DNA of 64,000 nt from Chiloscyllium plagiosum. Its lineage: Eukaryota. The stretch spans positions 18,353,185-18,417,184 of the forward strand of contig NC_057751.1 in NCBI RefSeq assembly GCF_004010195.1, in the 5' to 3' direction. Within the stretch, counting starts at the first letter, position 1; each line of letters opens with the position of its first letter. Below, piece by piece: positions 13,270 through 61,580 of the stretch. The position numbers and the translations under genes are program-made. A model generated the notes under the pieces. It saw nothing but the letters and a program-made list of their open reading frames with translations. It was not told where the DNA came from and did no database searches.

Positions 13270-15835
13270 AACTTTTTTTAATTTTCCTGTCAGGAATCAA
13301 AGCACAACATACAACAACTTAGAGATACCCGAGCAGTCCAGCACCTTTCTTGGCTCCCCTGTCCCCTGACTGCATCCCTGTCTCCAAACCCACGTCCTGT
13401 CGTATATTCATGATCCCTTCTGAACTTCCGCTCTCTGATGTTGAGCTTCTTGTACTCAGCAAAGGTCTCAGTTTGATCCCCCTGCGACTCTACCTTAATG
13501 AATGTTGGGCAAGATATGTTGTTGAGCTCTTCTTCCATCTGTCACAAATACCTTGTGGTCCAACTCCAACAGTCTCCCTCCACTTGCACCCCTTCCTCTG
13601 GCTTTTTACCTGCACTCAACCTGTTCATTGGGGACTGTCAGCGTGAGATTGTTCGCCTCTGTTTCTCTGCCCCCACCCCCATTTATTCGAACGCAAGCTT
13701 CCAGAACTAATTGCATCCAGGCTTTCAGATCCAAAGCTGACTTTTTTAATAAGCCTTCTGAAAAGCCTTCTGTTGTTATCTGATGTACTCATATCTACTT
13801 TGCAGAGGCTGAGCGCCAGCTCTCGGATACTTCCTCCTATTTCCACCTGGACCATAATTGCGCCATGGAATATTATGCCATTCAGCCAACTATGTGACCA
13901 ACATCATTGCATTTGGTGATCTCCCATCTACTACGTTCAAGCTGATGCTGTCCCAAACCCGCAAAGCTCGATTCTACCTCCTTTCCAATATCCACAAACA
14001 GGTCTACCCGGGCAGCTCACAGATTCAGCTGACTCCTGCCCCATAGAATTCACAGCTTCTTTCCTTGAATCGGTATTTTCCCCCCAGTCTAGACACTGCC
14101 CACTTACATCCGCGATTCCTCTGACATTTTATGCTCGTGTCAGAATTTCCAGCTTGCAGTCTCCAACCGCACGCTCTTTACCACGGATGTGCAATCCCTT
14201 TACACGTCCATCTCCCCACAGGTTGGTCTCAGTGCACTCCAATTCTTCTTGGAGCAGCCACGTGAACAATTCCTATTTTCCAACAGCCACATCGAACTGG
14301 CCGAGATCGGCCTCAAACTGAATAATTTCGGATTTAGGTCATTCATGTTCTTCAGTACAGAGCGTTGGCTCTGGACATATACAACATCCCCAATTAGACC
14401 TGTCTCTCTGCGATATACATGGAACTTGCCTTGCTCCGATCCTATACCGAATCCCATCCACAGCTCTTTCTCAGCACCATTGATGCAATCGTTTGTGTTG
14501 CCTCCCTTACTCAAATGGAATTAGAAATGCTTCTCAGTTTTGCTTCCAAGTCCATTAACAACCCAATTTCATCTCATCCATCTTTGACTCCTTCCACCAC
14601 TTTTTCGATATATCGGTTTCCATTTTTAAAGACAGATTGTCTGCTAATATTCATTATTAACCTAACGACTCCCACAATTATCTTGACTATTTTTCCTCAC
14701 ACCCTGCTTACTGTGAAGACTTTATACCATTCTTCAAGGTCCTCCATCTGTGCCACATCTGTTCTGGTGATGGCAAATTAATAAGGGCGTCTCCGAAATA
14801 TCCAACTTCTTCCTCAAACAAGGATTCCTGAGTACTGTTGTTCAGACGGCCTCCAGCTGGGACCAAACCATCTCCTGCACATTGCCCCTCACACCATCAT
14901 CTCTTCCCTTGTGTGATACTGCTAGTGTCTCCTTTCTCCATTGCTGACATCCCACAACCATCCACATGCAGAGTATCATTGACTGCCTTTTCTGTCACCT
15001 CAAGTGTGATGTCACCAAAAGACACATTTTCCAACCATCTCCCTTGTCTGCCTTGCAGCGGGACTATTTCCTCCAGAACACTGTGGTCCACTCTGATACC
15101 CTCCACCCACAACCTCACAGCACCTGCACTGCAGCCACACAATGTGACCTGCGAACTTACTTTCTCCATCCTCATCATCCAAGAACTCAAACACAACACA
15201 ATGTCAAGCATTGCTTTAGCTGCACTTCCCACAATCTAATCTGCTGCATTTGCTGCTTAAAATGTGGTTTTCTCTACCTTGCAAAAGCAAAGCATAGACT
15301 TAGCAACCATAACGCAGAACACCTACATTCTGCCCGCTAATTTGCCTGCCACATCAACACACGGCAGTGCGCCCTCACCAACATCTCAATCTCAGTTTGT
15401 TTGTTTTTTCGCACATCTTCAGCGAAGTTCAGTACAAACTGGATGAACAGTATCTCACTTTCCACTTGGGATCTCGACAGCGTTCCAGATTTAACATCGC
15501 GTTCAATAACTTCAGGGATTTACCGCACACAAGACCTCAGAAATGGGACCTCAATAACATACAGTCTACTATTCCCAACGGGACTAACGGTCCCTATTAA
15601 GAGCTATTCCCAGGTCGGCATCCACTCTTTTTCTGTCCAACTGCTTTTCTCTGTCTGGACTCTGACCCCAGCTATTGTTTACAACTTACCCTCCCCCAAC
15701 ATCCTTTCTTCTGCATGAAAACGACATTTTCCTTCGTACTGAAGGATCCCACGACCCGAAACGTAAACCCTGATTTCTCTCTACAGGCGCTGACAGACAT
15801 CAGAAGTGATACACTAATTCTTTTTTACTCTGGAA
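13270..15835 (+). mobile_element. Penelope-like element, near full length, decayed (RT + GIY-YIG, 3' pLTR with HHR remnant)
   Basis: LSDVELLVLSKGLSLIP N-terminus; KARFYLLSNIHK; LFTTDVQSLYTSI (RT motif A); HNLICCICCLKCGFLYLAKAKHRL..EHL (decayed GIY-YIG); CTGAAGGA..CCCGAAACGTA at 15739-15765. Confidence 0.88.
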
Positions 15836-15867: not shown

Positions 15868-16012
15868 CACCATTCATTATGAAGGGCCTCTCTTTATGCT
15901 TATGCCAGAAACATCGATGATTCTCCTCGGTTGCTACCTGACTGGATGTGCTTTTCCAGCGCCAAACTTTTCGACTCTGATCTCCAGCATCTGCAGTCCT
16001 CACTTTCTCCTG
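15868..16012 (+). mobile_element. Short Penelope pLTR-derived element, decayed HHR
   Basis: ..TTATGAAGGGC..GCCAGAAACATCGAT..TTTTCCAGC..CTCCAGCATCTGCAGTCCTCACTTTCTCCT, same family as 52156-52372. Confidence 0.75.
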
Positions 16013-19441: not shown

Positions 19442-22400
19442 CTCAGATGTTCTTTACATGAATAAGGTTTTTGGCGTGTGTTCTTTCTTTGACTGCAGAC
19501 AAAATTAAGTAATTACCTTGGCCTGCAGTTTTTGTCAAAGCAAAAAAAAGTGAAGACTGTCGCTGCAGGCCACCTATTAACAATGATTTCGGAATCTTAA
19601 TTGGAACATGAAGACGTTGATGGAAATATTACACTGTACATCAAAAAAGTAGTGAAGTGTCGAGAAATGTCCCTTGAACACTTAGTAAGGTTTATTTGCT
19701 GTATTGTCTGTTAAAAGCTTGCAACACTAGTCATTTTTTTCGAATCCATATTTGGAACTCCCATACGTTACCATGCCATGAACATATATTTTGTAGATAA
19801 TTCAATTTTGATTTGCAATCCAAGTTTTTTTAGATTAGATTTTAGATTACATTACAGTGTGGAAACAGGCCCTTCGGCCAAACAAGTCCACACCGTCCCG
19901 CCGAAGCGCAACCCACCCATACCCCTACATTTACCCCTTTCTGCTAACTCCAAAAAATGAAACGTGAATTGAAAACACAACCTGCTCTGGCAATATGTTG
20001 CAGAGCAAAATCTCAGAGTTCTCTGATATTTCACCTTCGAACTGTCCCTTTTGCATTACAGTGGACTTAAATGGGCAATTGTCTTTGAAAATGTATTGCC
20101 TCCTAAAACAGAAACTTTATGTCATCTGCCATGCAGCTCGGAACTTAATTATGTATTTTGGTGAAACAACTTGAGTGACCATGTTAGAATTTGTTCGAAA
20201 CAATTCATCACTCCATCCTACGGAGGGGAGCTGCAAGGGTTATTGTTGCAGACCGTCTTTTATGAATGTTTATGTCATCTGACTGAAAAATGTACAAGTT
20301 AATGAAAATGTTGCAGACTGCGTCGGAGTAGCAAGATATTGCGAAATAATTTAGCTCCGCAAGAGGCTTATGTGTTGCTATGAATGCAGAATATTGAAGA
20401 AATTTCAGTCTAGTTATTTCCACTGACAGTTGTCTGGAAGGCAGTCTGTAAAAGATTGAGCAAGCGCCACTGAACTCGAAACATGAACTCAGTTTCTCCT
20501 CCTAGATACTACCAGATCTCTTTAGTTATAACATCTTTTTTTCGTGTTTCTGCAAAGTCTTGGTTTCTTTACTAGTTAAAGCAGTAAAAGGTGACCATTG
20601 CATTTGAATGTGCAAATTTAGTTTTGTGGCAGTGAACTTAGATAAGAAATTGAATGTGGAGCAACTGTTATGTTCTTCCTCCTTTTATTTTAGGAGCATA
20701 TAATCATATCACAGAATCACAGAATCCCTACAGTGTGGGAACTGGGCATTTGACCCAACACATTCTCACTGACACTCTGAAGAGTAACATACCCAGATGC
20801 ATTCCCGTACCCTGTTGCACTACATTTCTCCTAACTAATATACCTATCCTACAAAGCTCTGAATAGTATGGGCAATTTAGCGTGGCCAATTCGCTAAACC
20901 TGCACACCTGACTGTGGAAGGAAACCAGAGCATGTGAAGGAAACTCAAACAGTGTTGCAATGAACACTGGACTTTGAATGACTGACGAAAGTAGGGCAAT
21001 TTGAGGAAGTGCATTTTATATCCAACAAAAGAAACAAGAATGCACAATGCCATGTGAAATTGATATTCTGAACTGATCGAACGGTTGACAGGATTAAATA
21101 CTTCCCAGTAGCAGGAAACTCAACACTGCATCGACAATGCAAGCAGTTCCGGAAACATCAGACTGAACATATGGCAGAACAATGGAGACTCAGTTGTTCT
21201 TTTCATGAGTAAGGTTTTTGGCGTGTGTTCTTTCTTTGACTGCAGACAAAATTAAGTGATTACCTTGGCCTGCAGATTTTGTCAAAGCAAAACAAAAGTG
21301 AAGACTGTCGCTGCAGGCCACCTATTAACAATGATTTCGGAATCTTAGTTGGAATATGAAGACGTTGATGGAAATATTACACTGTACATCAAAAAAGTAG
21401 TGAAGTGTCGAGAAATGTCTCTTGAACACTTAGTAAGGTTTATTTGCGGTATTGTCTGTTAAAAGCTTGCAACACTAGTCATTTTTTTCGAATCCATATT
21501 TGGAACTCGCAAATGTTACCATGCCATGAGCACATATTTTGTAGCTAATTCAATTTTGATTTGCAATCCAAGTTTTTTTTAGATTAGATTTTAGATTACA
21601 TTACAGTGTGGAAACATGCCCTTCGGCCCAACAAGTCCACACCGTCCCGTCGAAGCGCAACCCACCCATACCCCTACATTTACCCCTTTCTACTAACTCC
21701 AAATAATGAAACGTGAATTGAAAACACAACCTGCTCTGGCAATATGTTGCAGAGCAAAATCTTAGAGTTCTCTGATATTTCACCTTCCAACTGTCCCTTC
21801 TGCATTACAGTGGACTTGAATGGGCAATTGTCTTTGAAAATGTACTGCCTCCTAAAACAGAAACTTTATGTCATCTGCCATGCAGCTCGGAACTTAATTA
21901 TGTATTTTGGTGAAACAGCTTGAGTGACCATGTTAGAATTTGTTCGAAACAATTCATCACTCCATCCTACGGAGGGAAACTGCAAGGGTTATTGCTGCAG
22001 ACCGTCTTTTATGAATGTTTATATCGTCTGACTGAAAAATGTACAAGTTAATGAAAATGTTGCAGACTGCGTCAGAGTAGCAAGATATTGCGGAATAATT
22101 TAGCTCCGCAAGAGGCTTATTTGTTGCTATGAATGCAGAATATTGAAGAAATTTCAGCAAAGTTATTTCCACTGACAGTTGTGTGGAAGGCAGTCTGTAA
22201 AAGATTGAGCAAGCGCCACTGAACTCGAAGCATGAACTCAGTTTCTCCTCCTAGATACTACCAGATCTCTTTAGTTATAACTTTTTTTTCGTGTTTCTGC
22301 AAAGTCGTGGTTTCTTTACTAGTTAAAGCAGTAAAAGGTGACCAATTGCATTTGAATGTGCAAATTTAGTTTTGTGGCAGTGAACTTAGATAAGAAATTG

Positions 22401-22932
22401 AATGTGGAGCAACTGTTATGTTCTTCCTCCTTTTATTTTAGGAGCATATAATCATATCACAGAATCATAGAATCCCTACAGTGTGGGAACTGGGCATTTG
22501 ATGCAACACATTCTCACTGACACTCTGAAGAGTAACATACCCAGATGCATTCCCGTACCCTGTTGCACTACATTTCTCCTGACTAATATACCTATCCCAC
22601 AAAGCTCTGAATAGTATGGGCAATGTAGCGTGGCCAATTCGCTAAACCTGCACACCTGACTGTGGAAGGAAACCAGAGCATGTGAAGGAAACTCAAACAG
22701 TGTTGCAATGAACACTGGACTTTGAATGACTGACGAAAGTAGGGCAATTTGAGGAAGTGCATTTTATATCCAACAAAAGAAACAAAAATGCACAATGCCA
22801 TGTGAAATTGACATTCTGACTGATCGAACGGTGGACAGGATTAAGTACTTGCCCAGTAGCAGGAAACTCAATACTGCATCGACAATGCAAGCAGCTCCGG
22901 AAACATCAGACTGAAGATATGGCAGAACAATG
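19442..22932. repeat. Direct tandem duplication, two ~1.75-kb units (19442-21188, 21189-22932)
   Basis: Near-identical sequence offset by ~1747-1749 bp; duplicated ORF pairs 19852/21601, 20208/21957, 20728/22476. Each unit contains an HE1 tail fragment and a decayed HE1 SINE. Confidence 0.97.
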
Positions 22933-24347: not shown

Positions 24348-24866
24348 TTAGAACATAGAAGAATACAGCGCAGTACAGGCCCTTTGGCCCTCGATGTTGC
24401 GCCGATCCAAGCCCACCTAACCTATAATAACCCACTATCCTCCATATACCTATCCAATGCCCGCTTAAATGCCCATAAAGAGGGAGAGTCCACCACTGCT
24501 ACTGGCAGGGCATTCCATGAATTTACGACTCGCTGAGTGAAGAACCTACCCCTAACTTCAGTCCTATATCTACCCCCCCTTAATTTAAAGCTATGCCCCC
24601 TTGTAATACCCGACTCCATACGCGGGAAAAGGTTCACACTGTCAACCCTATCTAACCCCCTAATCATCTTGTACACCTCAATCAAGATGATTAGGGGGTT
24701 AGATAGGGTTGACAGTGTGAACCTTTTCCCGCGTATGGAGTCGGGTATTACAAGGGGGCATAGCTTTAAATTAAGGGGGGGGTAGATATAGGACTGAAGT
24801 TAGGGGTAGGTTCTTCACTCAGCGAGTCGTAAGTTCATGGAATGCCCTGCCAGTAGCAGTGGTGGA
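24348..24866. mobile_element. Young CR1 3' fragment (minus strand) folded back into a long palindrome
   Basis: Tail TAGAACATAGAA at 24349. Arms 24489-24671 and 24683-24866 are reverse complements with an 11-nt loop. The same peptide MIRGLDRVDSVNLFPRMESGITRGHSFKLRGG appears on both strands. Confidence 0.95.
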
Positions 24867-28599: not shown

Positions 28600-29558
28600 T
28601 TATAGACCTACAAACGGCTTATTCTTTGGGAATATGAGTTTGAACCTTAAGACATAATATGCCGAAATTTCCATCATATTAGTCAGACAAAAGCTGAAGC
28701 AAAAGAAACAACTTTGGAACCAAATTGGTTCGCTACTATAAATTAGGAAACGAAATGTACCAGCTATACTTGAGCTGGTCTCATGTGACACAGACAAAGA
28801 ACAATACAGCTCAAAGGACTCACTCATTGGTACCAAACCACTGCAGAAAGAATGAAAGGAAATAGAATAGAACAGCTGTCATCACATTAGATTCCAGAAA
28901 GGATGATCAGAAACGGAGCCCTGTTAAAAACACACACAGCAATTCCTGGCGACCTTTCCTAAAATTGGTCAAACACGTTTATGTGCTCCTATAACAAGGT
29001 AATCTGATCTTCCTATCCTATTTTCGGATGGGATCGAAAAAGCAGAGTTTCTGATATATCTGTATGTATTGCTTTGAAAACGCCTTGAAGTTTTTTCTTT
29101 CTTTTTTTAAAATGCGATGAGAAGGGAGTGGCCAGTTATCCCAGTTCAGGGTTTTTCTTTTTCTGAATTTTAGCTTGCATTTTTGTTTATGGCTATTGAT
29201 CAAAGAAACAGCTTCATGCTGGTACTCTCTGTCTCTGACATCTCTCCTGAAATAATCTTTTTTGACTTTAACTTCTGTTTGCCTTGGGGGGTGCAAATGT
29301 GAATGTTACAATACAATTAACTTGCCATTGAGTCGAGTGAGTTATCAGGTAGGTTAGGTTATTCTAAATTCGATTCTCTTTTCTTTGGGTTTCCTTCAGT
29401 AGTCATTAAATACATTCTGTTTTGTTTAAAACGGATTGGTTAGGCAAACTGCAGCGCTCCTGGAATATCCACTGTACACCTGCTGAAAACAATGTGAAAA
29501 GTTCACGTCTTGGCTGCCTTCTTTAAATGGACTGAGGAGTTCTGGCCTGATAAACAAC
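28600..29558 (+). mobile_element. Probable solo gypsy LTR
   Basis: 3' part (AAATACATTCTGTTTTGTTTAAAAC..TCTGGCCTG..AACA) parallels 33366-33513. The 5' boundary is uncertain. Confidence 0.6.
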
Positions 29559-31349
29559 AAATGGATAATCCAAGCAATGACCTGACGTCATTTGTTCAGA
29601 ATCACTCATTCCAGAAAGGAGACGCAAGAACCTTGATACAAGAAAAGATGGGGCATTTGGATTTTTTTTATTTGTGCTGATCTTCCAGTATTTACTTACT
29701 GTGCTGTGAACTTCTGACGCTTCGCCTGACAACAGCCTGTAACTGTTACTTAAACTGTTAACCTAAAGAGAATCGTGATATATGAAATTGTTGATTTTTT
29801 TTCTCAATCCATGCTGCAACACAGCAAATACAGGGAGGAGAAAAAGAGGCTACTGAAATCTGCACGGATTACGAGCTTAAAGAAAAAGATGAAGAAAAAA
29901 GCTTTTAGCTAAAATCTGTTTCATTTAATTTTCAAATCCCACCTTCTCCAAAATAGGTGCGCCTGATTACCAATAATATGAAAAAAAAATCACATTTTAT
30001 GTGAACGCGTTCCAAACAGTTTTCGCAGGGAATGATTGCCGTTTTCCAGCTTCTTTTCGAAGCAAGCATGCATTATGTCATCAAATGTGAACATTTGCAA
30101 TTCACGGACAAAATATAACAATACTGGTTTATGTTACCATGTCACACAAGTGGACTGCCGAGGCAACTGCCAAATCTGTGAAGGGAGACACCAGCTTAAA
30201 CTCATCAGTCAACTTTACCAATGTGCCAACAAATGCCTTTTGGTCGATAATATCAATAATTCCTCTGGAAGCTTGGAGTTGATATTCCAGTCGAGGAACT
30301 CACAAATGAGAACATTTTCTCAATGATAATTCCGACACAGTTGCTGTGAAGCGACAGCTTCTGGAATTGAGGCAACAGCATGTTTGAATGCGTTTGACAT
30401 CGTCAAATGCTGACAACATAAACTTGGTTGGACGGACCTTTCTTATTTAATACGGCAGCCTCACACTGAAACACAAGAGGACATTACTGTAGGCTTGGGT
30501 TCAATGTACGGCATAGGTTTATGACGGTAATACTGTGGAGATGAGTCAAATAAACCAAACAGAAATATTTTGCACAATTTGGCAGATTGCATGAGACTTC
30601 AACTCAATCTAATTTTGTCACGTCACTGAGTTCAAATGGAGGGAGCACCATCCCCCGATCACATCCACAGTTTTGACTGAAGTGTTGGTTTCTGCTCTCA
30701 GTCTTGAGAGTTTTATAAATCATATTTCGTTAAGGAATTGACCTTATTTGTTTTTAAAGTTCTTCAAACAACAAATTCGGATTTCTCAACGAAAATATCT
30801 GGACTGGAATTTTCAATGTAAAATATTTAAAATAAATGATGTTTCCAATGTTATAAGCTATCTATTGTCTTAGGGAGTAGCAGCATTGTTAACATTTAGC
30901 TTCAACCAGGACATGTGAAGCTACAATGGGAACAGTTTCAATCCAAATGTTCTTAACCTAAAGTGAACAACAAAACATCCTTATTCTCCTCAACTGAAAA
31001 CAAATTATTGTTCTCAATATGTACTCTGCCCGATTATAGAAGTTCGCCATATACTGAAAGTCTCACAATCACTTTAATATCTTCACACTCTCAACTGAAA
31101 ATCGCAACATGATCTTTAACTCCAAAAAGATCATTGAATATGCCAAAAGGCTGCCTCAGAGAACGAACCAAAACATCCAACTCAGTATTTCCAGTGCCAT
31201 TGTCTCTGCTTTGTCTATCTCTTTGACTACCTCTTCCTTCTTGAAATATTTTTCTATTGAGGTAAAAGGATTTATTTTCAAATGGGCGTTATTAAGTCAG
31301 TTTTTTTTAAAAAATACTTGTTATTCAAGTTGGCTCTATTCATTGGAAT

Positions 31350-31670: not shown

Positions 31671-31834
31671 TCTCCATTAACAAGGTTATGTTGTCGTTGA
31701 TTTTGTCAGAGAGGTTGTAGATGACACAGATTCCAAAACGTCTGGGTTGTAGGGGTTTAGTGCCAAGCTAATAATAGCAAACATGTACTTCCTCTGTTGT
31801 TGTGGTTCTGCTCGCCCAGCTGGGAATTTGTGTT

Positions 31835-31874
31835 GCAGACGTTTTGTCCCCTGTCTAGGTGACATCCTCAGTGC
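31835..31874 (-). ncRNA. Minimal hammerhead ribozyme motif with core mutation (GAAA->AAAA)
   Basis: Reverse complement reads GCA CTGAGGA T GTCACCT AGAC AGGGGAC AAAAC GTC TGC. Confidence 0.6.
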
Positions 31875-32913
31875 TTGGGAGCCTCCTGTGAAGCGCTTCT
31901 GTGATGTTTCCTCCGGCATTTATAGTGATTTGTATCTGCCGCTTCTGGTTGTCAGTTCCAGCTGTCCGCTGCAGTGGCCGGTATATTGGATCCAGGTCAA
32001 TGTGCTTATTGATTGAACCTGTGGATGAATGACATGCCTCTCGGAATTCCCTGGCTGTTCTCTGTTTGGCTTGTCCTATAATAGTGGTGTTGTCCCAGTC
32101 GAACTCATGTTGCTTGTCATCTGAGTGTGTGGCTACTAAGGATAGCTGGTCGTATAGTTTCGTGGCTTGTTGGTGTACATGGATGCGGATCGTTAGCTGT
32201 CTTCCTGTTTGTCCTATGTAGTGTTTTGTGCAGACCTTGCATGGGATTTTGTACACTACGTTGGTTTAGCTCATGCTGGGTATCGGGTCCATCGTCCTGG
32301 TGAGTTGTTGTCTGAGAGTGGCTGTTGGTTTGTGTGCTTTATAAGTCCTAATGGTCGCAGTAGTCTGGCTTTCAGTTCGGAAATGTTCTTGATGTATGGT
32401 AACGTGGCTAGCCCTTTGGGTTGCGGCATGTCCTCGTTCTTTTGTCTTTCTCTTCGGCATCTGTTGATGAAATTGCGCAGCTATCCGTTTTTGGCGAATA
32501 CATTGTATAGGTGTTCTTCTTCCTCTTTTTGCAGTTCTGGTGTACTGCAGTGTGTTGTGGCCCTTTTGAATAGTGTCTTGATGCACCTTCATTTGTATGT
32601 GTTGGGGTGGTTGCTTTCGTAGTTCATGACTTGGTCTGTGTGTGTGGCTTTCCTGTATACATTTGTGGTGAATTCTCCGTTTGGTGTTCTCTGCACAACA
32701 CTACTATTACAGGACAAGCCAAACAGAGAACAACCAGGGAATTCCTAGAGGCATGGCATTCATCCACAGATTCAATCAATAAGTACATCGACCTGGACCC
32801 AATGTACCAGCTACTGCAGCGGACAGCTGGAACTGACAACCGGAAGTGGCAGATACAAATCACTATAAATGCCGGAGAAAACATCACAGAAGCGCTTCAC
32901 AGGTGCCTCCCAA

Positions 32914-32953
32914 GCACTGAGGATGTCACCTAGACAGGGGATGAAACGTCTGC
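32914..32953 (+). ncRNA. Minimal type I hammerhead ribozyme motif, core intact
   Basis: GCA-CTGAGGA-T-[GTCACCT AGAC AGGGGAT stem II]-GAAAC-GTC-TGC. Stem I is GCA/TGC, with palindromic ACGT in place of stem III. Predicted cleavage after C32950. Confidence 0.75.
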
Positions 32954-33516
32954 AACACAAATTCCCAGCTCGGCGAACAGAACCACAACAACGAGCACCC
33001 GAGCTACAAATCTTCTCCCAAACTCTGAGGTACTTCCTCTGGCAAAGGCTTTCAAGTTAAAAAAAAAACTCGAACGCAGGAGGTGTGGCCAGTTCTCCCT
33101 GTTCAGCTTCTGTTAGCTTGCTTTTTGAAGCGTCGCGTGAAAATGAAAACGCTGCTGGATTCTGAGAAGCAGGTCCACGCTTGTACTCTCTGACTTTTAT
33201 CCTTTAACAACTAGTATTTAATTTTATCTTTTATGCCAAGAGTTGGGATTGTTGCAATGATTTGGAGCAGCATCATTAAGTTGGAATGGTCTCTTGGGTT
33301 TTTGGAGAGGTTACGTTATTCGGTATTCTGTTTTCTGTTGATGGTGTTTCATTCAGTAAAATTGTAAATACTTCTGTTTTGTTTAAAACTAATTGGTTTG
33401 ACCAGCTGATTCTATCCTAAAATACCAATTTTACGCCCGCTTAAAAAACTAGCGAGTTTAGCGTGTGGGCTACAATCTTGAAACAATTGAGGGGTCTGGC
33501 CTGGTCCATAACAGAT

Positions 33517-33534
33517 TGGCGGCTCGTTTGGGAT
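33517..33534 (+). promoter_or_regulatory. Primer-binding site, tRNA-Pro type
   Basis: TGGCGGCTCGTTTGGGAT matches TGGGGGCTCGTCCGGGAT at 15/18 positions, 3 nt after the LTR end. Confidence 0.8.
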
Positions 33535-33639
33535 TTATTTCTTTCATTCCAAATAGGAGCTATATTTGTTGCACTCAAATGCAGCTAAGTATTAATGTAT
33601 TTTGTTCCGGGTGTTTAATTCGAATGGTGCAGTGCTTAG

Positions 33640-35320
33640 GGTAACAGTGGCTCTTTCTGGAGGTGGAAGAAATGACTTTGGGTGTTTTAAAAAGCTGATT
33701 AAGTTCCAGATGCTGGAATTCGCATGCAAGCTGGAGTTGGAGCCTTCCATGAGGAAAGAAGAGATAATTTCAGCAATAGCTCAGCAATTTAATTTGCTGG
33801 AAACGCCATCAGAATCTTCAGAGATGGCTAAAAGTTAACTGAAAAAGAAGCAGTGTGGGTTCGAAGCAAAATACAAGGCATTAGGATCAAAAGCAGAAGA
33901 AGGAGAATAGAAAAGAGAGAAAGGGCGATAGAGGAAAGGAAGACAGTGAGAGTTTTGAAATTCAGAAATTGGCACTTAGGGGTTCAATGATGCACTTTCT
34001 AAAGTAGCGAGACTCATGTGGAAGAGCAGAGTGTTAAAACGGCAATATTAGGAGCCGAAATAGGTGATACTTATGTGTTTGACCTCAAAGCAAAGTTTGA
34101 TTTCCAGAATCAATTTCAATCCCTGATGGATAGAAATTAGGGAAAGATAAGCCATCACAAGGAAATGGAAAGGTCGATCTCAGTGAAGATCAGAAAGACT
34201 ACTTACCAAATGGTTAAAAAGGAACACTTGAAGGGGACAGGGAAGTTATACAGCTCCGGTGTATTCATTGCAAAAAAAAGTAGGCCAAGTGAAAGCACTG
34301 TTAAAGTGGGTTAGGAAAACCACTGGGAAGCCAGATGTAAGATAACAGGATTAGCCATTGACTTTTGTTGGAATGATGACAGAAAGCATGGTGGAGGCAA
34401 GAAAGCACCATCAGAGTGTACACGCTGGTCTGAGGTTGGTTAAGGAGGAAGTACCAGATCGTCTTTAACCACATACCTGAGAAGGTAAAGTTTATTCGCA
34501 TCTGCCACAGGCAGCTGGTAAGCAGATTACAATATTTAGAGTCATAGGATTTTCTCAAACTGTGATGTTGAAATATGAGGAGCCATGTACTTTTGAACGG
34601 CTAACGCCAGAAAAAGGGAATTCACGGTGAGACAAAAAAAAGTTCATCTATGTGAAGTGAGGTAAGAGAGTCCAGTGAAAAGTGGATGATTCGTGGTATG
34701 AGTTCTGGTAAATCTCTCAGCTCCATTTGTCCTTGCTGAAGAAGCAGCTGGTACACCATTAGGATGGCTACCTACTGTGGTTTAAAAGCCACTGGAAGCT
34801 CTGACAACTAAAGTATTGCAAGGCACGTATCATGGAACGTTTCCTGACTATATCAGCTAAAATATGATATATGAAATAGTGCAGATAAAAACATTGAATT
34901 GGAATTAGCAGGGACCCTGTTTGATCAGGCAGTGGCACAAATCAGGAGCAGATGGATGACAATGCAGACATCTTAAGTTCAGAATAAATAACGGAGTTAC
35001 AGCAGAAAGATGAAAATTAAAGCGATTGTATCAAAAGGCATAAACATAAAACAAGTCCGAATGTATCTCTAAATGCCGTTATCTTCAAAATTATGTCTTA
35101 ATGAGGAAATGGAGGCCATCACATATTCAGGCAGATGAGAAATGTGCAGAACATCATCAAATCGCATTGTCAGTGGGTTATAGAAAGGAGGTGTTGAGCG
35201 TGGCACAACCACTTGGGAGACTTTTAAGAGTGAGGAAAACACAAGCCAAAATACAAAATAAAACATGTTTACGGCCTGAACTACACAGGGAATTATTTGA
35301 ATTTTGTCAGATGCTGGGTC
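33640..35320 (+). mobile_element. Gmr1-like gypsy internal region: gag, zinc knuckle, protease remnant, integrase N-terminal zinc-binding region (decayed, truncated)
   Basis: LEFACKLEL..RKEEIISAIAQQFNL (gag); RCIHCKK..G (knuckle, ~34258); protease remnant ~34530; MRKWRPSHIQADEK..GYRKEVLSVA..RVRKTQAKIQ..FCQ (35101 onward), with no RT in between. Confidence 0.8.
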
Positions 35321-35706
35321 AGAATCCTGGAACTTGCTCGCTTCAAGTGGCGCCGGGTTTCTGCACCACACGGAACGAATCTGTTGCCACCACCTTCTCA
35401 GATCAATTCCTAACTGGTAATAAATGCTGTCACACCAGAGACTTCAACATCATACGAGTGAATGAAATAGCCCCACCATGCTCTTGGTTGTAGACTATTA
35501 TCTAACTTCCGTGAAAAGTACTCCAGCGTGACGACCCACCAAACATCAGAAATAGTGACACTGAGCTGGAGAGTTTGGTAATGGGTGAAAGGCTGGGGAA
35601 TTATCTGTCTTCGAATGTGATTGTGGCGAGTGCAATATTGAGTTAGTTATCATGTATTAACATTTAACGAACCATGCCAGTCAGATTATTGCATTAGGAC
35701 TGTGTG

Positions 35707-35834
35707 GAGAAGAGGAGGACAGCAGATGCTGGAATTGAGAGTCGAAAAGTAGGCGCTGAAAAAGCACAGCAGGTCAGGCAGCATCCGAGGAGCAGGAGAA
35801 TTGACGTTTCTGGCATAAGGCCTTAAACAGGAAT
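35707..35834 (-). mobile_element. Short Penelope pLTR-derived element, decayed HHR
   Basis: GCACAGCAGGTCAGGCAGCATCCGAGGAGCAGGAGAATTGACGTTTC, same family as 52156-52372. Confidence 0.8.
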
Positions 35835-39974: not shown

Positions 39975-42900
39975 TGCTGGAAAAGGTGGGAACTGTAAGG
40001 TAAGGACAGGTTGCACTGAAACAGGAGGGGCACCAATGTCCTGCGCAGGAGTTTTAACAGTGCACTTCAGGAACGTTTAAACTCGTTTGGCTGTGGGAGG
40101 TAAACCAGCGCTACAGATCGGAGAGGATGTTTAGTTGTTGGTCAGATAGAAATAGAATAGAGAGAATTTGTCAGGAAGGATACACAGCTGATTGGGCAAA
40201 CGGATAGGTTAAAGTGCGCCTGTTTCAATGCAAGGAAAGTCAGGACTAAGAGTAACGAACTTAGAGCAATAACCAGTTCTTGGAACAACGGTGTTTGGCA
40301 GTAACAAAGACATGTATTTCACAGAGGCAGGCAAGTTTGATGGATGTTCCAGTGTTTAGACCTTTTAAAAAAAAACAACGAGGGGGAAAAGAGCATTATT
40401 TAAATATTTTACAAAGAACAGCGATGAGGTGAAAGAGGGAGAAGTAGCATCATTAGTTAGAGAGTGCATCACAGCTGTAGAAAAGGAGCTTGTTAAGGAG
40501 GGCTGAGTAAGTGTGGGTGGTAATAAGTAACAGAAAATGAGCAGTCACCCAACTCCCCTTCCCACCCCCCCCACCCCCCCACACCCACCCCACTTCCTAA
40601 TAGCTGCTGAGGATTGAAGAAACGATTGTGCAGTAGATCTAGGAATGACGCACAATGTATGGGTGAATACACCTTCAACAAATTAATTGGAACCTCCTTG
40701 TTGCAGATTGGCTTGGCGGAGCTGATTTCATCTGGTATGTACAGGAATCATTCCTGATATCATACGTAGATAGTCCAACAAGGGAGAGGCCATATTCGAT
40801 TTGCTGCTAGGCAATGTGCCAGGCCAGGTGCCAGCTCTCGTAGTGGGACAGTATTTCGGTGACAGTGACCACAACTCCTTACCCGTGCTATAGCCAAGAA
40901 GAGGGATAGGAAAAGGTAGTGTTGGAATATATTTAACTGGAGGAGGGGAAGTTATACTGCTCTTAGACAGGGGCTGTGGAGAAGAATTGGAAACAATTGT
41001 TCCAAAGAAAATGTAAAACAGAAATATGGAGGGTGTTTAAGGAGCACTTTTTGTGTTGGATAACATTATCCACTGAAACCAGCAAGGAATGATAACGGAA
41101 GGAGCCGTGGACGAGAAGAAAAGAGAAGCTTCCCATCAAGAGGAAGAAGAAGGCTTACTTGAGTTTGAGTTATCAAGGATTGGGTACAGCTTTAGATAAT
41201 TATAGAATAGCGAGAGAAGAGATCAAAAATGGACTGAGTAGAGATCAGAGGGGGCATTAGAAAGGCTTGCTGGAAAGTCTTAGAAAACTCAAAAGCGTCT
41301 ACCCTAAAGTGACGAATAAATGAATGCACAGAGAGAGGGGAGGGTTGATAATAGATAGTGGCGGAAACTTGTGCCTGGAGTTTGACGAGGTTGGGGAGGC
41401 CCTAAATGCTTCTGTATTCACTGGAGAGATGGACCTTGTTGAGGGCGAGAACATCCTGGAACAGTTTGATATTTAAAAAGTGGATGCTGAAAATGCTTGG
41501 TATCATCAAGATAGACAAGTGCGCACGGCCGGACCAGGTGTATCAAAAGTAACTACAAGAAGCGAGAAATGAGATTACTGTGGCTCTGGCGATGAATTTT
41601 GCACCTTCATTCTCCATGGTAGTAGTACTGAATTGTTAAAGGGAAGCGGATGTTATACTTTTATTCAAGAAAGGGAATTGGGAAATTCCCAGTAATTACA
41701 GAGCAGTAAATCTTACATCTGCGGTGAGCAAGATACAGGAAAAATATTCTGGATCATAGAGAAATAGAGAAGTGTAGCGTAGAAACAGACGCTTCTGTCC
41801 AACTCGTCCATGCCAAACAGATATCCTAAATTAGACTACTCCCATTTGGCAGCATTTGGCCCATATCACTCTCAACCCTTACTATTCATGTGTCCATCTA
41901 GATGTATTTTCAATGTTCTTCAGGAAGGGCTAATGCCCGAAACGTCGATTCTCCTGTTCCCTAGATGCTGCCTGACCTGCTGCGCTTTTCCAGCAACACA
42001 TTTCCATCTCTGATCTCCAGCATCTGCAGACCTCACTTTCTCCTCATTCAGTGAAGAGGGCTGGGATAAAAGTAAATATCAATTCCTGGACACAGCTTTG
42101 GGTGGGCGAAAGGACACAATGAGTGGCAGTGGATGGAAAATACTCTGTTTGGAGGTCGGTGTCCAGTGTTGTCCCACATCGATCTGTTCTACGTACCACG
42201 ATCTTTGCAATTTTGAAAAATGACTTGGATGAAGAAGTGGAATGCTGGGTTATTAAGTTTGCGATGGCACAAAGGTCAGTGGTGCCGTAGATAGTGTCGA
42301 GGGCTGTTTCAGGCTACAACAAAGCATTGACAGGACGCAGAGATGCGTAAGAAGTATAATATCGAATTCAACCTGGATAAATGTGAAGTGATTCATTTTG
42401 GAAAGTCGGATTTGAATGCTGAAGATAGAGTTAAAGATAGAATTATTAGTAATGTGGTGGAACAACTGGATCTTGAGGTCCAAGTAAGTAGATTCCTTAA
42501 AGTAGCCATCCAAATTGACCGGGTTGTTCAGAAGACATATGATTTTAGGCTTCCATTAACAAGGGGATTGAGTTTAAAAGCGGCGAGGCTTTGCTCTATA
42601 AAATACGAGTTTGACAATACTTGGCATTTGAGTCCATTTGAGTCACCTCATTATCAGAATGATGTAGATGCATTCGAAAGTGTGCAGTGGAGAATTAACG
42701 GGATGCTGCCTGGATTGAAGTACTTGATTTGTGAAGAGACGTTGAACGAGGTCGGGTTTTTCACACTGTCGAGAAGAAGGAAGAGAGGTGACTTCATAGA
42801 GACGTTCAAGGTTATGAGAAGAACAAAAAGAATAGATAGTCAAAGACTTTTCCCCAGCGCAGAAATGACTGTCACAAGGGATCATAATTTTTAAGGTGAC

Positions 42901-44850: not shown

Positions 44851-46376
44851 AGTCTCTCACTACAAATGTATCGTCTATGTTTGGATGAGGAAATGATGCT
44901 GAAACAAATGGTTATCATGATGCTTTGTTTCACAAATAAGGATGTGGAGCCTTGTTTGTTTTTCTGTGGAAGTAGCCATTAGTATCACCTTTCATAATTC
45001 ACTCAGGTAAATGTAATACCAGAAGATCAAAAGCGGTAGAGCAAAGAAATGCCAACTTGGTTTTCTAATTGAATCATGGCGGATTCGAAATTCCTCGTGT
45101 CATTTTAGAACCCTTTCACAACGACTACTTTGTTTGGTTGCTTTTGATCTTCAGTATCCACAATCCTTTTTTTTTGCAGGATGACTCTACTCACGAATTC
45201 AGATGAATGCGCTCTGTAGAATCTTACAGTCATCTTTAAATTGTAAGAGTGCTAGGCACTTTAAATAAATAACGATATTTCTCATATGAAAGTAGCCCAG
45301 AAACAGAGGTAACAGTTTAAGAGTAGAAAGAGGGGTTTTCACATTGTGGTGACCCAAAAATATTGCACCTAGAGACTTGTGATTTCATGGACCTCTATAC
45401 CTCACGCAACGGTTCAGGCAATATGATTGAATATCGTGAAGCGTGAGATAGCTATTGTTCTGAAGAATTGAAGAAATCAAATGGAAAAGGTAGAAAGACA
45501 ATTCTGATTTGAAAGACAATCCATGATCATCTCGAATGCCATTGCTGGCTGGATGGTGGAACAGCCTCCTCCTTTTTGTAGGGTCAGTATTTAGATGAGG
45601 AAATGGTGCTATAACACAATTCATTACCACCTTCTCACGAATTTAGATTGTACAAACTCTATAGCATCGGCATATTAACGTCAGCCGAATGACAATTGAC
45701 AATTAATCTAAATGTATGTTGTATGTTACGTTTGTGTTCTTTGCTATGTTTCGCTTCCATGTTATGAATTTGTGTCAAGGTGGTATATGTGCTATAAGAC
45801 GCTGATGGCTTGTTTTCTGCAGTAACTGTTGTTTGTACTTTATCAATTGAGTCAATATATTCCTTTATTCACTTTGGCAGGTAACATTCTCAATGGTGTC
45901 TATTGAATATACCTGACGTGATCTCCAGTTTAGAAAGCGATTTGACTGTTCCTCATTGTATAATGACTTAAAAATCTCCAACTCCAATCAACTCAGCAAT
46001 TTCTGTTAACATTATCCAAATGCTTCGATGTTCCGTGAAAAATTACAGCTTCCTTTCTTCTGTTTACCTCTTTTCGTATCTGTACTGCCATGTTAGAGAT
46101 TTACCAAATAGGTTGTCCCTTTTCAGAATCATTGTAGTTTGGGAAAAGTTGAAATATTGTGTGGGATAGCCATTGTGAGCGAGCATTGTGAGACTTTCAA
46201 ACGAATTGCGATGTTACTGATCCACATTTATTGCTGTACCACGTGTCTGAGGGAGCAACACATCCAAGGCACGCAAAAGCCACCTTCCTATAAAATTTCA
46301 CATTATCCTTTCCCAATGTTATTCCACATTTCCCGTGTATCACGAACTTATTTGGGCATGTCTCCATTTACTCTTT

Positions 46377-47216
46377 CAGGAGAAAGTGAGGACTGCAGAT
46401 GCTGGAGATCAGAGCTGAAAATGTGTTGCTGGAANNNNNNNNNNNNNNNNNNNNNNNNNNNNNNNTTGGCTGAGACAAGGTGGGGGGAGGGGAAATGAGG
46501 AAACTGGAGAAATCTGAGTTCATCCCTTGTGGTTGGAGGGTTCCTAGGCGGAAGATGAGGCGCTCTTCCTCCAGCCGTCGTGTTGCTATGGTCTGGCGAT
46601 GGATGAGTCTAAGGACCTGCATGTCCTTGGTGGAGTGGGAGGGGGAGTTGAAGTGTTGAGCCACGGGGTGGGTTGGGTTGGTTGTTCCGGGTGTCCCAGA
46701 GGTGTTCTCTGAAATGTTCTGTAAGTAGGCGGCCTGTCTCCCCAATATAGAGGAGGCCACATCGGGTGCAGCGGATACAGTAAATGATGTGTGTGGAGGT
46801 GCAGGTGAATTTGTGGCGGATATGGAAGGATCCCTTGGGGCCTTGGAGGGAAATAAGGGGGGAGGTGTGGCGCAAGTTTTGCATTTCTTGCGGTTGCAGG
46901 GGAAGGTGCCGGGAGTGGAGGTTGGGTAGGTGGGAGGTGTGGACATGACGAGGGAGTCACGGAGGGAGTGGTCTTTTCAGAACGGTGATAGGGGAGTGGA
47001 GGCAAATATATCCCTGGTGATGGGGTCCTTTGGAGGTGGCGGAAATGACGATGGATGATACGATGTATATGGAGGTTGGTGGGGTGGAAGGTGAGGACCA
47101 GTGGGCTTCTGTCCTGTTGGCGATTGGAGGGGCGGGGCTCAAGGGCGGAGGAGCGGGAAGTGGAGGAGATGCGGTGGAGGGCATCATCGATCTCGTCTGG
47201 GGGGAGATTGCCATCT
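46377..47216 (-). mobile_element. Young 5'-truncated Penelope-like element (GIY-YIG and 3' pLTR), spanning an assembly gap
   Basis: PLVLTFHP, CNRKKCKTC, HIIYCIRCTRCGLLYIGETGR..FREHL, LEEERLIFRLGTLQPQGMN. Terminus AGGAGAAAGTGAGGACTGCAGATGCTGG. Flanks TCCATTTACTCTTT (46363-46376) and TCCATTTTCTCTTT (47217-47230). Confidence 0.93.
46435..46465. other. Assembly gap (31 N)
   Basis: Run of N. Confidence 1.
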
Positions 47217-49686
47217 TCCATTTTCTCTTTACCTTGTCTGTCGATCTCTCATTGTGAACCATTCCAACAGCGTTACCATCGTTTTCTCTCTCTTCCCCAT
47301 CGATAACTCTCTGAGCTTCAAGTTTAACATACATTGAAGAAGCAGGAATAAGCTATTCACCTCCTTGCGAGTGTTGCCTCATTTATTATATTCATGGTTG
47401 ATATGATTCTCACCTAAAATCTTACACACTCCTCACCTTCTGATAAAACTTAATCATTTGATACAACAAGCCGGTTATGAAAGCTCGTCTCTCCATTCAG
47501 AGAGAAACAGTTCCAGATTTTGTCAGCTTACAATTTATGGCCAGCAACCCAGAGAATCATGTTGCCCTCATTCACGTATGTAATGCAAATCGCTCGAGAA
47601 ATGCAGAGAAGTCTATTTCCGTATGGGAAGAGGAGCAACAGAAAAACGAGCAGCGGCCATTGTTCATCCTTTAAGACCCTTGTTTGTGCCCATGATGCAA
47701 GAGTATGTGCCAGAACCGATGTGCCATTGTGCAAGAATGAAGGCATTAAAATCGCAAGTATTAAAAGATCATTCCACTGATACAACCTACCATTAAGAAA
47801 GAGAAAGGCCTCAATTCAGTATCAGCTGCAGTTAAAAATATAAAAGTGGCAGTCACTATGAGCTGGAACAACATTGTAAGACTTCAGAAATACAGAAGGC
47901 AGTCAATCAGCCAACGTATGCCTACCAGTTGGATTACGTATTCTGAATCTATTACCTGGGGTGATCCTTTTTTCAGGTCCCTGTGCCTCATTACATTCGC
48001 CCTCTGTCTCTCCCCAAAATAACAATGGGCCTCTTGAATGCTTCAAATAAACATGCAATTCCAGGCAGTGCATTTCGGATCCGAACTGTACGCCGTTTTT
48101 CTCTTTTTCTCATACCACGCTGTCTTCCTTTGCATGGAACTTCAGGTATGAGACCACGGGGTCACTTTTATTTGACAGGAAACAACTTCTGCCGACCTAT
48201 TGTGTTCATTCCCTGACGATTTTGCAGATCTTTATCAGATCGTCCTCTGAGTCTACTTCTCTCTAAGAGACAAATCTCAACATCTTCCGTCTGACCTGAT
48301 CATTGAAGTTCCTCATTCCCGAAACTATTCCTGACAGTCACTTCTGCATGCTCTCTCCAATGGATCTGCCCAAACTACCATCGGGACTCAATCAGAAGCT
48401 GAGGATTGGCGATGCCTATTTTCGATTAAAACACTGTGATGATCTCACTTTGTAATATGATCACCCTATGAATTTGAGGGCTTTGAGAAGTACAGTTAAT
48501 GTGCCAGGGTAAGGAGCAAATCCAAAAACAACTTCTGCAAAAACTTACTATTGAAATATTTCAGGAAGTTTCTAAGAAGAGGAGGGACGTGATTTGGAAG
48601 AAGGGTTCCAAAAAGTTGAAAAATTTATGCGCAGGGTTCGTGCATATTCAAAGTTTAATGTGAATTCCATACTTGATGTTCTTTTGTCCCAACACTGATG
48701 TGACTTTTATACTTTCTGACAGTGTACACTATTCATCTGCCGCAGTCCCAAAATGAATTGAAATTCTTCCAAAAAAATTTTAAGTGCCTATGACATTTTA
48801 ATCGAGTTTAATCAGACGTCAGATAAAAGCAAACTACTGTTCATGCTGGAAATTCGACACATATGCAGGGACTGCTGGAGAGGATCAGCGAGTATGGCAG
48901 AATTCATGTGAGAGAAACAAGAATTATGTTTCGTGTCATAAATGACTGTACTTCAGAACCTTATTTTAGACTGTAGCAAGAAATATATCGTGATCCTCAA
49001 ACCTTCAAGAGGTAGTTTCCTAATCGCATTCTGGAAATATTACTGACTATTTGTGCTGCAAAACCACATTCCAAAGGAACCATTTCACTCAAGTTTAAAT
49101 CTAACATTCACTCAGTAACTTGGAAAATTACTCGGTTGTGACCTGTCCACAATATCCTCTTCACAATAAAAAAAAGGCTAAATCTAAACTGACTATCAAT
49201 GTCCATTAATCCTCTATCAGTCATCAAGGAAAGTGATGAAAATGTTATTGTATAGGCCAGTGACAGTAAATACATTTAACTTAATATACTTAATGTTCGT
49301 CTTGACAGTGTTCTTGTCTTGGCAATGTCTGGCCGTGAGGCATTGAGGGCAGAGACTGGCAAATGAAGACTTAAATTGACAGGACCTGGTTTCAACTGAG
49401 ATTGACCATGGGATCACTGACACTGTGTTCCTCTGGCCTCACCCAATACACACCAAACACTTGGAGCCAGTAGGTACGACCCATTTCCAACGTCACTCCA
49501 GTTTATTGGTTTAAAAATCAGAACTGAATCCATCGGATTAAACTCCATGACCGATGATTAAGGTCGCCTGTCACAGGCTGGACCTAACAGCAAGGTGTGG
49601 AATGGTTCACAAGGCATTAAGAGGCAGTTCGGCCATTATAGCATTGTGAGAGCATGTCATTCGCATCGTCATTCTGTGTCAGTCCA

Positions 49687-50024
49687 ATCGAGAATGTGGT
49701 GCTGGACAAGGACAGCTGGTCAGGCAGCATCCGAGGACCAGGATAATCGACGATTTGGACATAAACCCTTCACCAGGAATGGCCAATTCCCTTTGCCCAT
49801 GTGTTTGTTTTTAAACTTGAAAGCCTTTTCCATGAGGAAGTATCTGAAAGTCATGGTCAAATTGGTCCTAAAACCAATCTAATGCAGACACATCATTCCT
49901 GATGGAGGGCTTAAGCCCGAAACGTCGTTTCTCCTGTTCCTCGGATGCTGCCTGACCTGCTGTGATTTTCCAGCATCTCATTCTCGACTCGGATCTGCAA
50001 CGTCTGCAGTTCTCACTTTCTCCC
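49687..50024. mobile_element. Composite Penelope pLTR-derived insertion: inverted half + enclosed LTR segment + forward half
   Basis: Minus half 49687-49781 and plus half ~49893-50024 (CTGATGG-A-GGGC TTAA GCCC-GAAAC-GTC). Decayed 14-bp TSD; empty site at 53822-53835. Confidence 0.8.
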
Positions 50025-52155: not shown

Positions 52156-52372
52156 AGAAAGTAAGGTCTGCAGATGCTGGAGATCAAAGTTGAAACTTTA
52201 TTGCTGGAACAGCACAGCAGGTCAGGCAGCATCCAGGGAACAGGAGATTCGACGTTTCGGGCACAGGCCCTTCTTCAGGACCTGAAGAAGGGCCTGTGCC
52301 CGAAACGTCGAATCTCCTGTTCCCTGGATGCTGCCTGACCTGCTGTGCTGTTCCAGCAATAAAGTTTCAACT
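52156..52372. mobile_element. Palindromic non-autonomous Penelope pLTR derivative with HHR cores on both strands; 13-14 bp TSD
   Basis: Perfect 92-bp arms 52188-52279 and 52281-52372. CTGAAGA-A-GGGC CTGT GCCC-GAAAC-GTC at 52282-52309 and its mirror. (T)CCATTACCCCAGG at 52142-52155 and 52372-52385. Confidence 0.93.
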
Positions 52373-52526
52373 CCATTACCCCAGGCTTAGCTTTCCTCCT
52401 TTGTCCTCAATTCGGCCAATCCTTTCTGCATTTACCTTCTATTAAAAAAATGAAGGATTTTCCTTAACACCTTTTGCTACAGATATTAATTGAACCATAT
52501 TAGTTTTCTTAATTCCTCGTTTCATG

Positions 52527-61188: not shown

Positions 61189-61351
61189 AGACGAAAGCTT
61201 ACCAAGGATATTCAAAAATGTTCAGGAATGTAGAATTTAGATAATAGCTATGTCAGCCTGAAATTGATGTGAAATTGTAACAGGATGGAAGGGCTAAATA
61301 TGTAATTCCTTCTCTATGTTCGTATGATCCACGTGTTAATGGAATGTTACT

Positions 61352-61386
<35 letters not shown>

Positions 61387-61546
61387 CGAAAGCTTACCAA
61401 GGATATTCAAAAATGTTCAGGAATGTAGAATTTAGATAATAGCCATGTCAGCCTGAAATTGCTGTGAAATTGTAACAGGATGGAAGGGCTAAATATGTAA
61501 TTCCTTCTCCATGTTCGTATGATCCACGTGTTAATGGAATGTTACT

Positions 61547-61580
<34 letters not shown>
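61189..61580. repeat. Tandem duplication of a 195-bp unit ending in a (GT)n microsatellite
   Basis: AGACGAAAGCTTACCAAGG.. at 61189 and 61384, near-identical, each followed by (GT)n. Confidence 0.97.

Follow-up and report, generated by a model that had tools for sequence, protein, structure and literature searches.

A head-to-head Penelope/Poseidon-type insertion in Chiloscyllium plagiosum with two minimal hammerhead motifs that appear to have decayed at a single CpG

The window analysed here, a 64,000-bp stretch of Chiloscyllium plagiosum DNA, contains a 1,257-bp segment (31785-33041) flanked by an exact 12-bp direct repeat (Table 1). The rough chance of such a repeat near the arm ends is 3e-4, and we take it, from the repeat itself, as a target-site duplication (TSD). 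The segment includes two inverted arms of 298 bp each, 93% complementary and 601 bp apart, whose 3' ends both face outward to give a head-to-head unit. The arms differ at 21 of 298 positions (16 transitions; six differences of CpG type). An initial annotation of this DNA had described an exact 12-bp TSD and a junction at ~32694, and both were found, at 31785-31796/33030-33041 and 32694-32696. Its ~300-bp inverted copy of the 3' end corresponds to the 298-bp right arm; this is not a pure copy, however, as it runs on for 36-37 bp into a tail that occurs only on the right arm and has no counterpart at the left.

Table 1. Features of the insertion at 31785-33041 (positions in the window).
Feature	Position	Strand	Remarks
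TSD (putative), left copy	31785..31796		Last base also complements 32992, giving a 1-nt ambiguity of the end
Left inverted arm	31796..32093	-	3' 298 bp of the truncated copy
Element body, 5'-truncated Penelope/Poseidon copy, ~900 bp	31797..32696	-	3' end at left, stopping short of the tail; from tblastn with P0003
Minimal hammerhead motif, minus arm	31835..31874	-	G10.1-C11.1 retained; G12>A at 31845
Linker end and GIY-YIG endonuclease	31858..32337	-	C-x2-C between the two motifs; in-frame stop at 32266-32268
RT end/thumb and linker	32340..32696	-	86% identity to P0003 residues 185-301; two in-frame stops
Head-to-head junction	32694..32696		Loose ends behind 32693 and before 32695; from P0011 and P0003 sequences
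Right inverted arm	32695..32992	+	Second, shorter 5'-truncated copy, beginning within the endonuclease
Minimal hammerhead motif, plus arm	32914..32953	+	Core 32917-32923; G12 at 32943; palindrome at 32946-32949; cleavage predicted after 32950; stem I of 3 bp
ATG formed by A9, unpaired U and G10.1	32923..32925	+	In the frame of the family ORF N-terminus
Stop of the endonuclease frame	32931..32933 (minus arm: 31855-31857)	+	Top of stem II
One-sided tail	32993..33029	+	36 family bases to 33028 and one extra G; from P0011 and family loose ends
TSD (putative), right copy	33030..33041		Repeat; tail, TSD and flank spanned by contig record 22 of run X4

At the inner junction there is a 2-nt microhomology (32695-32696), and the family sequence departs on either side of it; position 32694 may be a silent change in the body, or else a single untemplated base. 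The target site has no marked AT richness, and blastn within the 64-kb window found no further copy of this element's family. Contig record 22 of run X4 covers 33000-33407 (tail, duplication and right flank) with two other letters and one gap; provided that the X4 sample is independent, the right junction is not peculiar to this assembly. The run comparison covered 32100-33600, which takes in the right and inner junctions, and no empty allele occurred among the matches listed.

That the segment is an old, dead, 5'-truncated insertion from an abundant carpet-shark family of Penelope/Poseidon type is, in our judgement, nearly certain. Its minus-strand frame 31855-32265 (136 aa) has a VVY-C-x2-C-YIG motif and ends in STEDVT-stop. 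A protein search with this frame yielded, from 352 candidates, eight proteins that are 60-92% identical, all from Chiloscyllium punctatum, Hemiscyllium ocellatum or Stegostoma tigrinum (carpet sharks), which confirms the Penelope insertion with a minus-strand GIY-YIG region originally proposed. P0003 has the RT core and endonuclease in one frame; it aligned by tblastn at 87% over 32699-32340 and 32337-31858, and the body fragments are 86-88% identical to it. A frameshift near 32338 splits the endonuclease part from the upstream RT part. With this frameshift and three in-frame stops in the body, the element is dead. The RVT_1 score of P0011 was 43.5 bits against a cut-off of 29.6, and the GIY-YIG scores of P0005 and P0009 (15.2 and 18.4 bits) lay under the curated Pfam cut-off of 22.6. 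None of five fragments of the broken element itself matched Pfam (a further test of two fragments gave one spurious match), and its identity therefore rests on its homologs.

The cysteines of the endonuclease and a zinc finger in the linker separate Penelope/Poseidon from Neptune elements (Craig et al., 2021; PMC8557442). A C-x2-C lies between the endonuclease motifs in this copy and five relatives, with the downstream histidines kept in the alignment, and the CX2-5CxxC zinc finger present in Neptune was found in the RT-EN linker of none of the eight proteins. By these definitions the sequence places the element in Penelope/Poseidon and not in Neptune. A protein scan of viral contigs produced 127 candidates, none of which was confirmed, and a metagenome scan found distant families only (27-61% best-segment identity), this shark family being absent from it. 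Two of the C. punctatum proteins, P0006 (annotated as MAP3K7 isoform X3) and P0008 (5'-nucleotidase domain protein 1 isoform X3), end in the family endonuclease; these endings are either exonised pieces of the element or annotation artefacts.

Four of the 24 listed sequencing runs (X4, X13, X15 and X21) were compared with 32100-33600, and the figures given are those of the matches listed. Summed contig depth in the two DNA-like runs was 0.2-4 million over the element versus 16-160 over the flank at 33120-33221, a depth that marks a very abundant family and is not a copy number. The family sequences break off at 33028 in all four runs (87, 229, 65 and 67 loose ends in X4, X13, X15 and X21, respectively, among the matches listed) and at 32989-32992 in two of them (6 and 25 in X15, 45 in X21, likewise among those listed), with smaller groups of listed loose ends at 33024 and 33031. 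These two family-wide 3' ends coincide with both ends of the insertion, and the tail lies between them: the body stops at the proximal family end and the right arm at the distal one. At 32759 both arms carry T, against C in 72-98% of the family depth, and this shared minority letter argues for their origin from the same subfamily. Family reads in X21 have a strand bias consistent with sense transcription; no X21 RNA reads were found on the unique flank at 33069-33221. Among the X21 reads, 17 of 231 have an additional A at 32940, within the 3' strand of stem II, and 16 of 239 are one base short at 32958, after stem I; these probably represent a transcribed subfamily with a different stem II.

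Overall, we assign a probability of about 0.8 to the explanation that a single insertion from this abundant family produced head-to-head truncated copies that are now dead, with both ribozymes mutated. Both arms run unbroken across the predicted cut site, ending 42 and 78 nt past it, so the RNA that was copied was uncleaved at this ribozyme. How the two copies came to be joined is less secure, and we consider it somewhat probable that both strands were primed and the products joined at the microhomology. The element protein would nick both target strands 12 nt apart, and each 3'-OH would prime reverse transcription of uncleaved element RNA at one of two internal start sites, ~+70 (proximal) and ~+106 (distal) from the ribozyme ATG. 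Both cDNAs would stop early, at ~900 nt and ~335 nt, and would anneal via the two shared bases before fill-in, after which the arms would decay neutrally. At a single locus, two RNAs and one RNA used twice are indistinguishable, and a 2-nt microhomology is weak. There is a precedent in the Poseidon element PAc of Anolis carolinensis, in which cutting and extension affect both strands, the tail is bounded by two start sites, unprocessed RNA is the main substrate and the ribozyme is protein-assisted, reverse transcription proceeding without ribozyme cleavage (Frangieh et al., 2024; PMC11167929).

Instead of two primers, a single template might have given the inverted arm through self-priming or strand switching, with fold-back on an antisense template; element identity and neutral decay would stand as before. 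Head-to-head orientation is what self-priming was proposed to explain in rotifer Penelopes (Arkhipova et al., 2013; PMC3846280), and the minority variant common to both arms at 32759 is as expected from one template. That model, however, needs palindromes at the junction, whereas here two unrelated parts of the ORF are joined and the arms are 601 bp apart. Furthermore, the right arm has a tail that the body lacks, and so it cannot have been copied from the cDNA of the body. We consequently regard a one-template origin as unlikely, and priming from both strands as the better account.

The insertion carries a genuine minimal-hammerhead motif, as had been argued from a stem II unrelated in sequence between two families around a constant core. 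In the plus arm, stem II can be taken to pair 32925-32931 with 32936-32942 (seven positions, a 4-nt loop and one A.G mismatch at 32928/32939), an unpaired U lies at 32924 between A9 and G10.1, and the palindrome ACGU (32946-32949) replaces helix III. The core pattern had three exact matches in the window (this motif, at 32917-32950, and two of a second family, described below) versus 0.00 in 100 shuffles; an Rfam search of the whole window (E<=5) gave 15 matches, with no hammerhead or other ribozyme among them. The metagenomes gave 80 loci of distant relatives; 50 extend as far as the endonuclease, and a minimal hammerhead occurs in eight, compared with 0.05 in shuffles. All eight lie in the sense orientation and downstream of the match to the endonuclease, and have both the extra base and the palindrome; pairing was a selection criterion for these and four of them are near kin. 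Across 13 motifs from the different families (including the eight selected for pairing, four being near kin) most stem II positions have three to five pair types. One distant relative, L110 (1093-1125), has a U3-A8 core covariant, a change that has been described for Schistosoma elements (Cervera and De la Pena, 2014; PMC4209133).

Conceivably, two overlapping reading frames produce the motif as a by-product, and the family has no working ribozyme. The motif is indeed coded in two frames, and its A.G mismatch looks like a family trait (a Thr codon and a Gly codon in the two frames, from different copies). In addition, a stricter, core-only pattern matched 67 viral loci, which we rejected as unrelated: they represent ten variants of one sequence, in which stem II is not evident. 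No pile-up of 5' ends was found at 32951 in one poly(A) single-cell run, which is a weak test (962 reads, 22 of them at >=99% identity). Against this possibility, the hammerheads of the distant relatives are all in sense with the extra base and far exceed the shuffled expectation, and stem II letters change among families while pairing persists. Moreover, cleavage has been shown for the anole motif, which occupies the same position, and core mutations affect it (PMC11167929). A mere by-product is accordingly improbable, and the ribozyme of the family is probably a weak self-cleaver assisted by dimerization or by protein. The palindrome does point to dimer-dependent cleavage, as initially proposed; this locus, however, cannot form a dimer in cis, its motifs being on opposite strands. 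The dimer MFE folds failed to give the active fold, and the palindrome duplex contributed only -3.1 kcal/mol.

The overlap of the hammerhead with the ORF stop, also noted initially, proved to extend to the family. The C-terminal ends are EDVT in P0003, P0007, P0008 and P0013 and DEVS in P0005, while P0004 and P0009 read through; to judge from these sequences, the overlap is a family trait. Nor is it peculiar to this family, as the first in-frame stop borders on or overlaps the motif in three of the eight metagenome hammerheads (L071, L072 and L112). The ribozyme AUG lies 8 nt upstream of the endonuclease stop in a different frame. The plus-strand frame at 32869-33027 passes through motif and tail and matches residues 1-53 of P0011 at 91% identity. 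P0011 itself extends without a frame break into RVT_1, an RT of this family, and thus the arm encodes the N-terminus of the ORF. The AUG at 32923 may be the true start; a second in-frame ATG (32869-32871) is the annotated start of P0011. Codons of the two frames, taken from different copies, seem to hold the A.G mismatch in place.

It is possible, though we hold the idea tentatively, that the 40-nt ribozyme is triple-coded, with the stop of the previous ORF and the AUG of the next within 11 nt and the conserved unpaired base supplying the U of that AUG. Of the 13 tabulated motifs, the other 11 have A as this base, and an AUG role for it is therefore not general. If triple coding were true, the unit would be without any UTR, and termination and re-initiation would occur on the ribozyme in tandem transcripts. 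Translating ribosomes would block its folding, and cleavage 25 nt past the AUG would sever the ORF from its start, making the ribozyme a switch between translation and cleavage and not an end-processing step. We found no description of a start/stop overlap in a ribozyme in the literature, the accessible part of PMC8557442 being silent on it, and publication elsewhere is possible.

The 21 differences between the arms were polarised as 11 derived in the plus arm and seven in the minus arm, with three unpolarised; the plus-arm changes were assigned by read depth (eight) and proteins (three), and the minus-arm changes by proteins and the core. Eight of the 21 positions fall among the best 40 of 376 matches listed, and at these the family has the minus-arm letter (at least 99% of depth in X4). 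The K2P distance between the arms is 0.075. We consider it very likely that the arms decayed neutrally, by ~3.7% each, and the roughly even split is as this predicts. The inverted pair might be suspected of stemming from two separate insertions, or from two older copies through later inversion or recombination, since arms 7% apart contrast with an exact 12-bp duplication. At such divergence, however, an exact 12-mer is expected with a probability of 0.42. A single duplication encloses both arms, the junction itself has none, and each arm has its own private differences. We therefore judge two events very improbable, and retain the single insertion.

Within the ribozyme, two adjacent positions distinguish the arms: at 32942-32943 the plus arm has TG and the minus arm CA. 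The plus-arm hammerhead had been called complete: its core, 3-bp stem I and seven-position stem II with one mismatch stood, but C11.1>U makes a G10.1.U11.1 wobble of the G-C pair at the base of stem II, and the unpaired U had gone unmentioned. In the minus arm the reported G12>A was found (A at 31845), though it is not the sole difference in the ribozyme. The catalytic core (C3-A9, G12-A14, A15.1-U16.1 and H17) is thus complete in the plus arm and broken in the minus arm. G12 has an established role in hammerhead catalysis, and the minus-arm hammerhead is predicted to be catalytically dead. The G10.1-C11.1 pair is absent from the plus arm and present in the minus arm, P0011 and P0012. These two C. 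punctatum proteins read RQGTKRL across the motif in the second frame, like the minus arm, versus RQGMKRL in the plus arm. Since the proteins give C11.1 and the plus arm gives G12, CG is the family state. This state rests on two proteins, position 32942 being outside the best 40 of 376 matches, a gap that tells little because the CpG-type sites of clear polarity at 32809 and 32847 are likewise outside the matches listed. The sequences indicate that both arms were mutated at one CpG by decay on opposite strands, the plus arm losing C11.1 and the minus arm G12, so that the pair is not one intact and one mutated hammerhead, as first described, but two derived copies. With two positions differing, 31835-31874 is also no single-variable control, contrary to its suggested use as a natural negative control.

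In folding predictions for the lone 40-mer, stem II had a probability of 0.08-0.13 in the plus arm and 0.95-0.98 (basal pairs) in the minus arm; in a 103-nt context these fell to 0.00 and 0.16. In read-through RNA, 38 of 40 minus-arm motif positions pair with the other arm, as do all 40 in the plus arm, and the other arm would sequester the plus-arm motif. A longer helix around the minus-arm motif was rejected as a family feature, as it depends on private changes at 32971 and 32977. Neither hammerhead copy at this locus is likely to cleave, according to these models. A natural on/off pair, in which the plus-arm ribozyme was kept active and the minus-arm one lost, as the initial annotation implied from the core bases all present in the plus arm and the loss of G12 in the minus arm, is the least credible reading, given that decay of the same CpG removed G10.1-C11.1 from the plus arm, which also has more derived changes (11 vs 7), that the plus-arm stem II forms with a probability of 0.12 by itself and 0.00 in context, that 40/40 motif positions pair with the other arm in read-through RNA, that at least one difference within 40 bases is expected anyway (probability 0.95), and that the unique flank is without X21 RNA reads.

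The window contains further elements of this kind. A fold-back insertion of the second family (52142-52385) has a 14-bp duplication (52142-52155, 52372-52385), a 185-bp palindrome (99.5%) and two intact minimal-hammerhead cores back to back, at 52251-52278 (minus strand) and 52282-52309 (plus strand); it is much younger than the 31785-33041 element and a better substrate for assays. Decayed end pieces of this second family occur at 49688-50025, 41919-42046, 35703-35834 and 15899-16012, and damaged cores at 49899, 41919 and ~35803-35830. A Penelope-like fragment on the minus strand (46368-47352) has a C-x4-C-x2-C linker motif (46368-46976; Neptune-type, by a looser pattern), and its 3' end shares sequence with the second hammerhead family; its ribozyme position lies at or near an assembly gap (N run, ~46435-46465). 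Plus-strand frames at 14093-15790, which by eye we take to resemble a Penelope RT and endonuclease, are followed by a hammerhead-like core (15739-15765), and together these are probably a third family. Other repeats include a 378-bp palindrome (24489-24866; arms 96.8% alike), which is related to a repeat at 58077-58403 and at whose ends no duplication of at least 8 bp was found, and tandem duplications at 19442-22932 (1,747 bp, 96.5%) and 61189-61578 (195 bp, 98.5%). The right flank of the inverted-arm element includes another repeat (33222-33425), 70% identical to 29351-29562 and of raised depth in the runs, and an 80-aa frame (33596-33838) that resembles the start of an LTR-element gag, for which Pfam gave no match.

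The locus itself is of little weight, being one decayed copy of an abundant family whose architecture and ribozyme type have already been published. Except for the stop overlap, the correct points of the initial annotation are all in the available text of PMC4209133. The value of the locus is as a clean fossil that agrees with Poseidon in vitro: two start sites bounding the tail, an uncleaved template and priming of both strands. The start and stop inside the ribozyme, as a trait of the family, offer a testable role for the ribozyme in the Penelope cycle, for which the decayed 31785-33041 copy is the wrong substrate.

Several known systems resemble this insertion. The tandem direct repeats of a short non-coding hammerhead unit that typify non-LTR retrozymes are absent; the arms are inverted and derived from coding sequence, and a tandem retrozyme was rejected as there is no direct repeat of a unit. 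A retrozyme preprint (10.64898/2026.07.22.740005) sampled one cartilaginous fish. The motifs are closer to the min-HHRs of metazoan Penelope-like elements, which cleave weakly and as dimers only (PMC4209133). Shared features are the lack of helix III, the palindromic 15.2-16.2 region, a long helix II (7-8 bp), a short helix I and the unpaired base between 9 and 10.1. The G10.1-C11.1 pair conserved in that set is present in the shark family and was lost from the plus arm. Pairs of min-HHRs lie on opposite strands 100-700 bp apart; those here are also on opposite strands, at ~1.04 kb. The present case differs from that set in its shark family, which the available text does not name, its 3-bp helix I and the mutation of both copies.

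The architecture has its counterpart in the EN+ PLE units with an inverted pLTR and tail (PMC3846280, PMC8557442). In common with them, there is an inverted 5'-truncated copy at the 5' end, a 30-40-bp tail at one end, coding of the first ORF residues by pLTR and tail, and microhomology at junctions. The TSD is 12 bp here and 8-10 bp in those units, and this insertion has no junction palindrome and no direct 5' pLTR, its body being truncated in the RT thumb.

The mechanism is most like that of PAc (PMC11167929). Unlike PAc, the shark copy is dead and its target is not notably AT-rich, and in the shark family the stop of the previous ORF also lies within stem II, a statement that the available text on PAc does not make. 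Both combine an RT with a GIY-YIG at the C terminus, and stem II is where the ORF begins in PAc and would begin here; the cut follows 26 nt further downstream in PAc, and here its predicted distance from the A of the ATG is 28 nt. Two internal RT start sites bound the tail, within an AC-rich stretch; in PAc they lie 111-118 nt inside the ORF, and here at ~+70 and ~+106. PAc copies uncleaved RNA, and both arms of this insertion likewise derive from uncleaved RNA.
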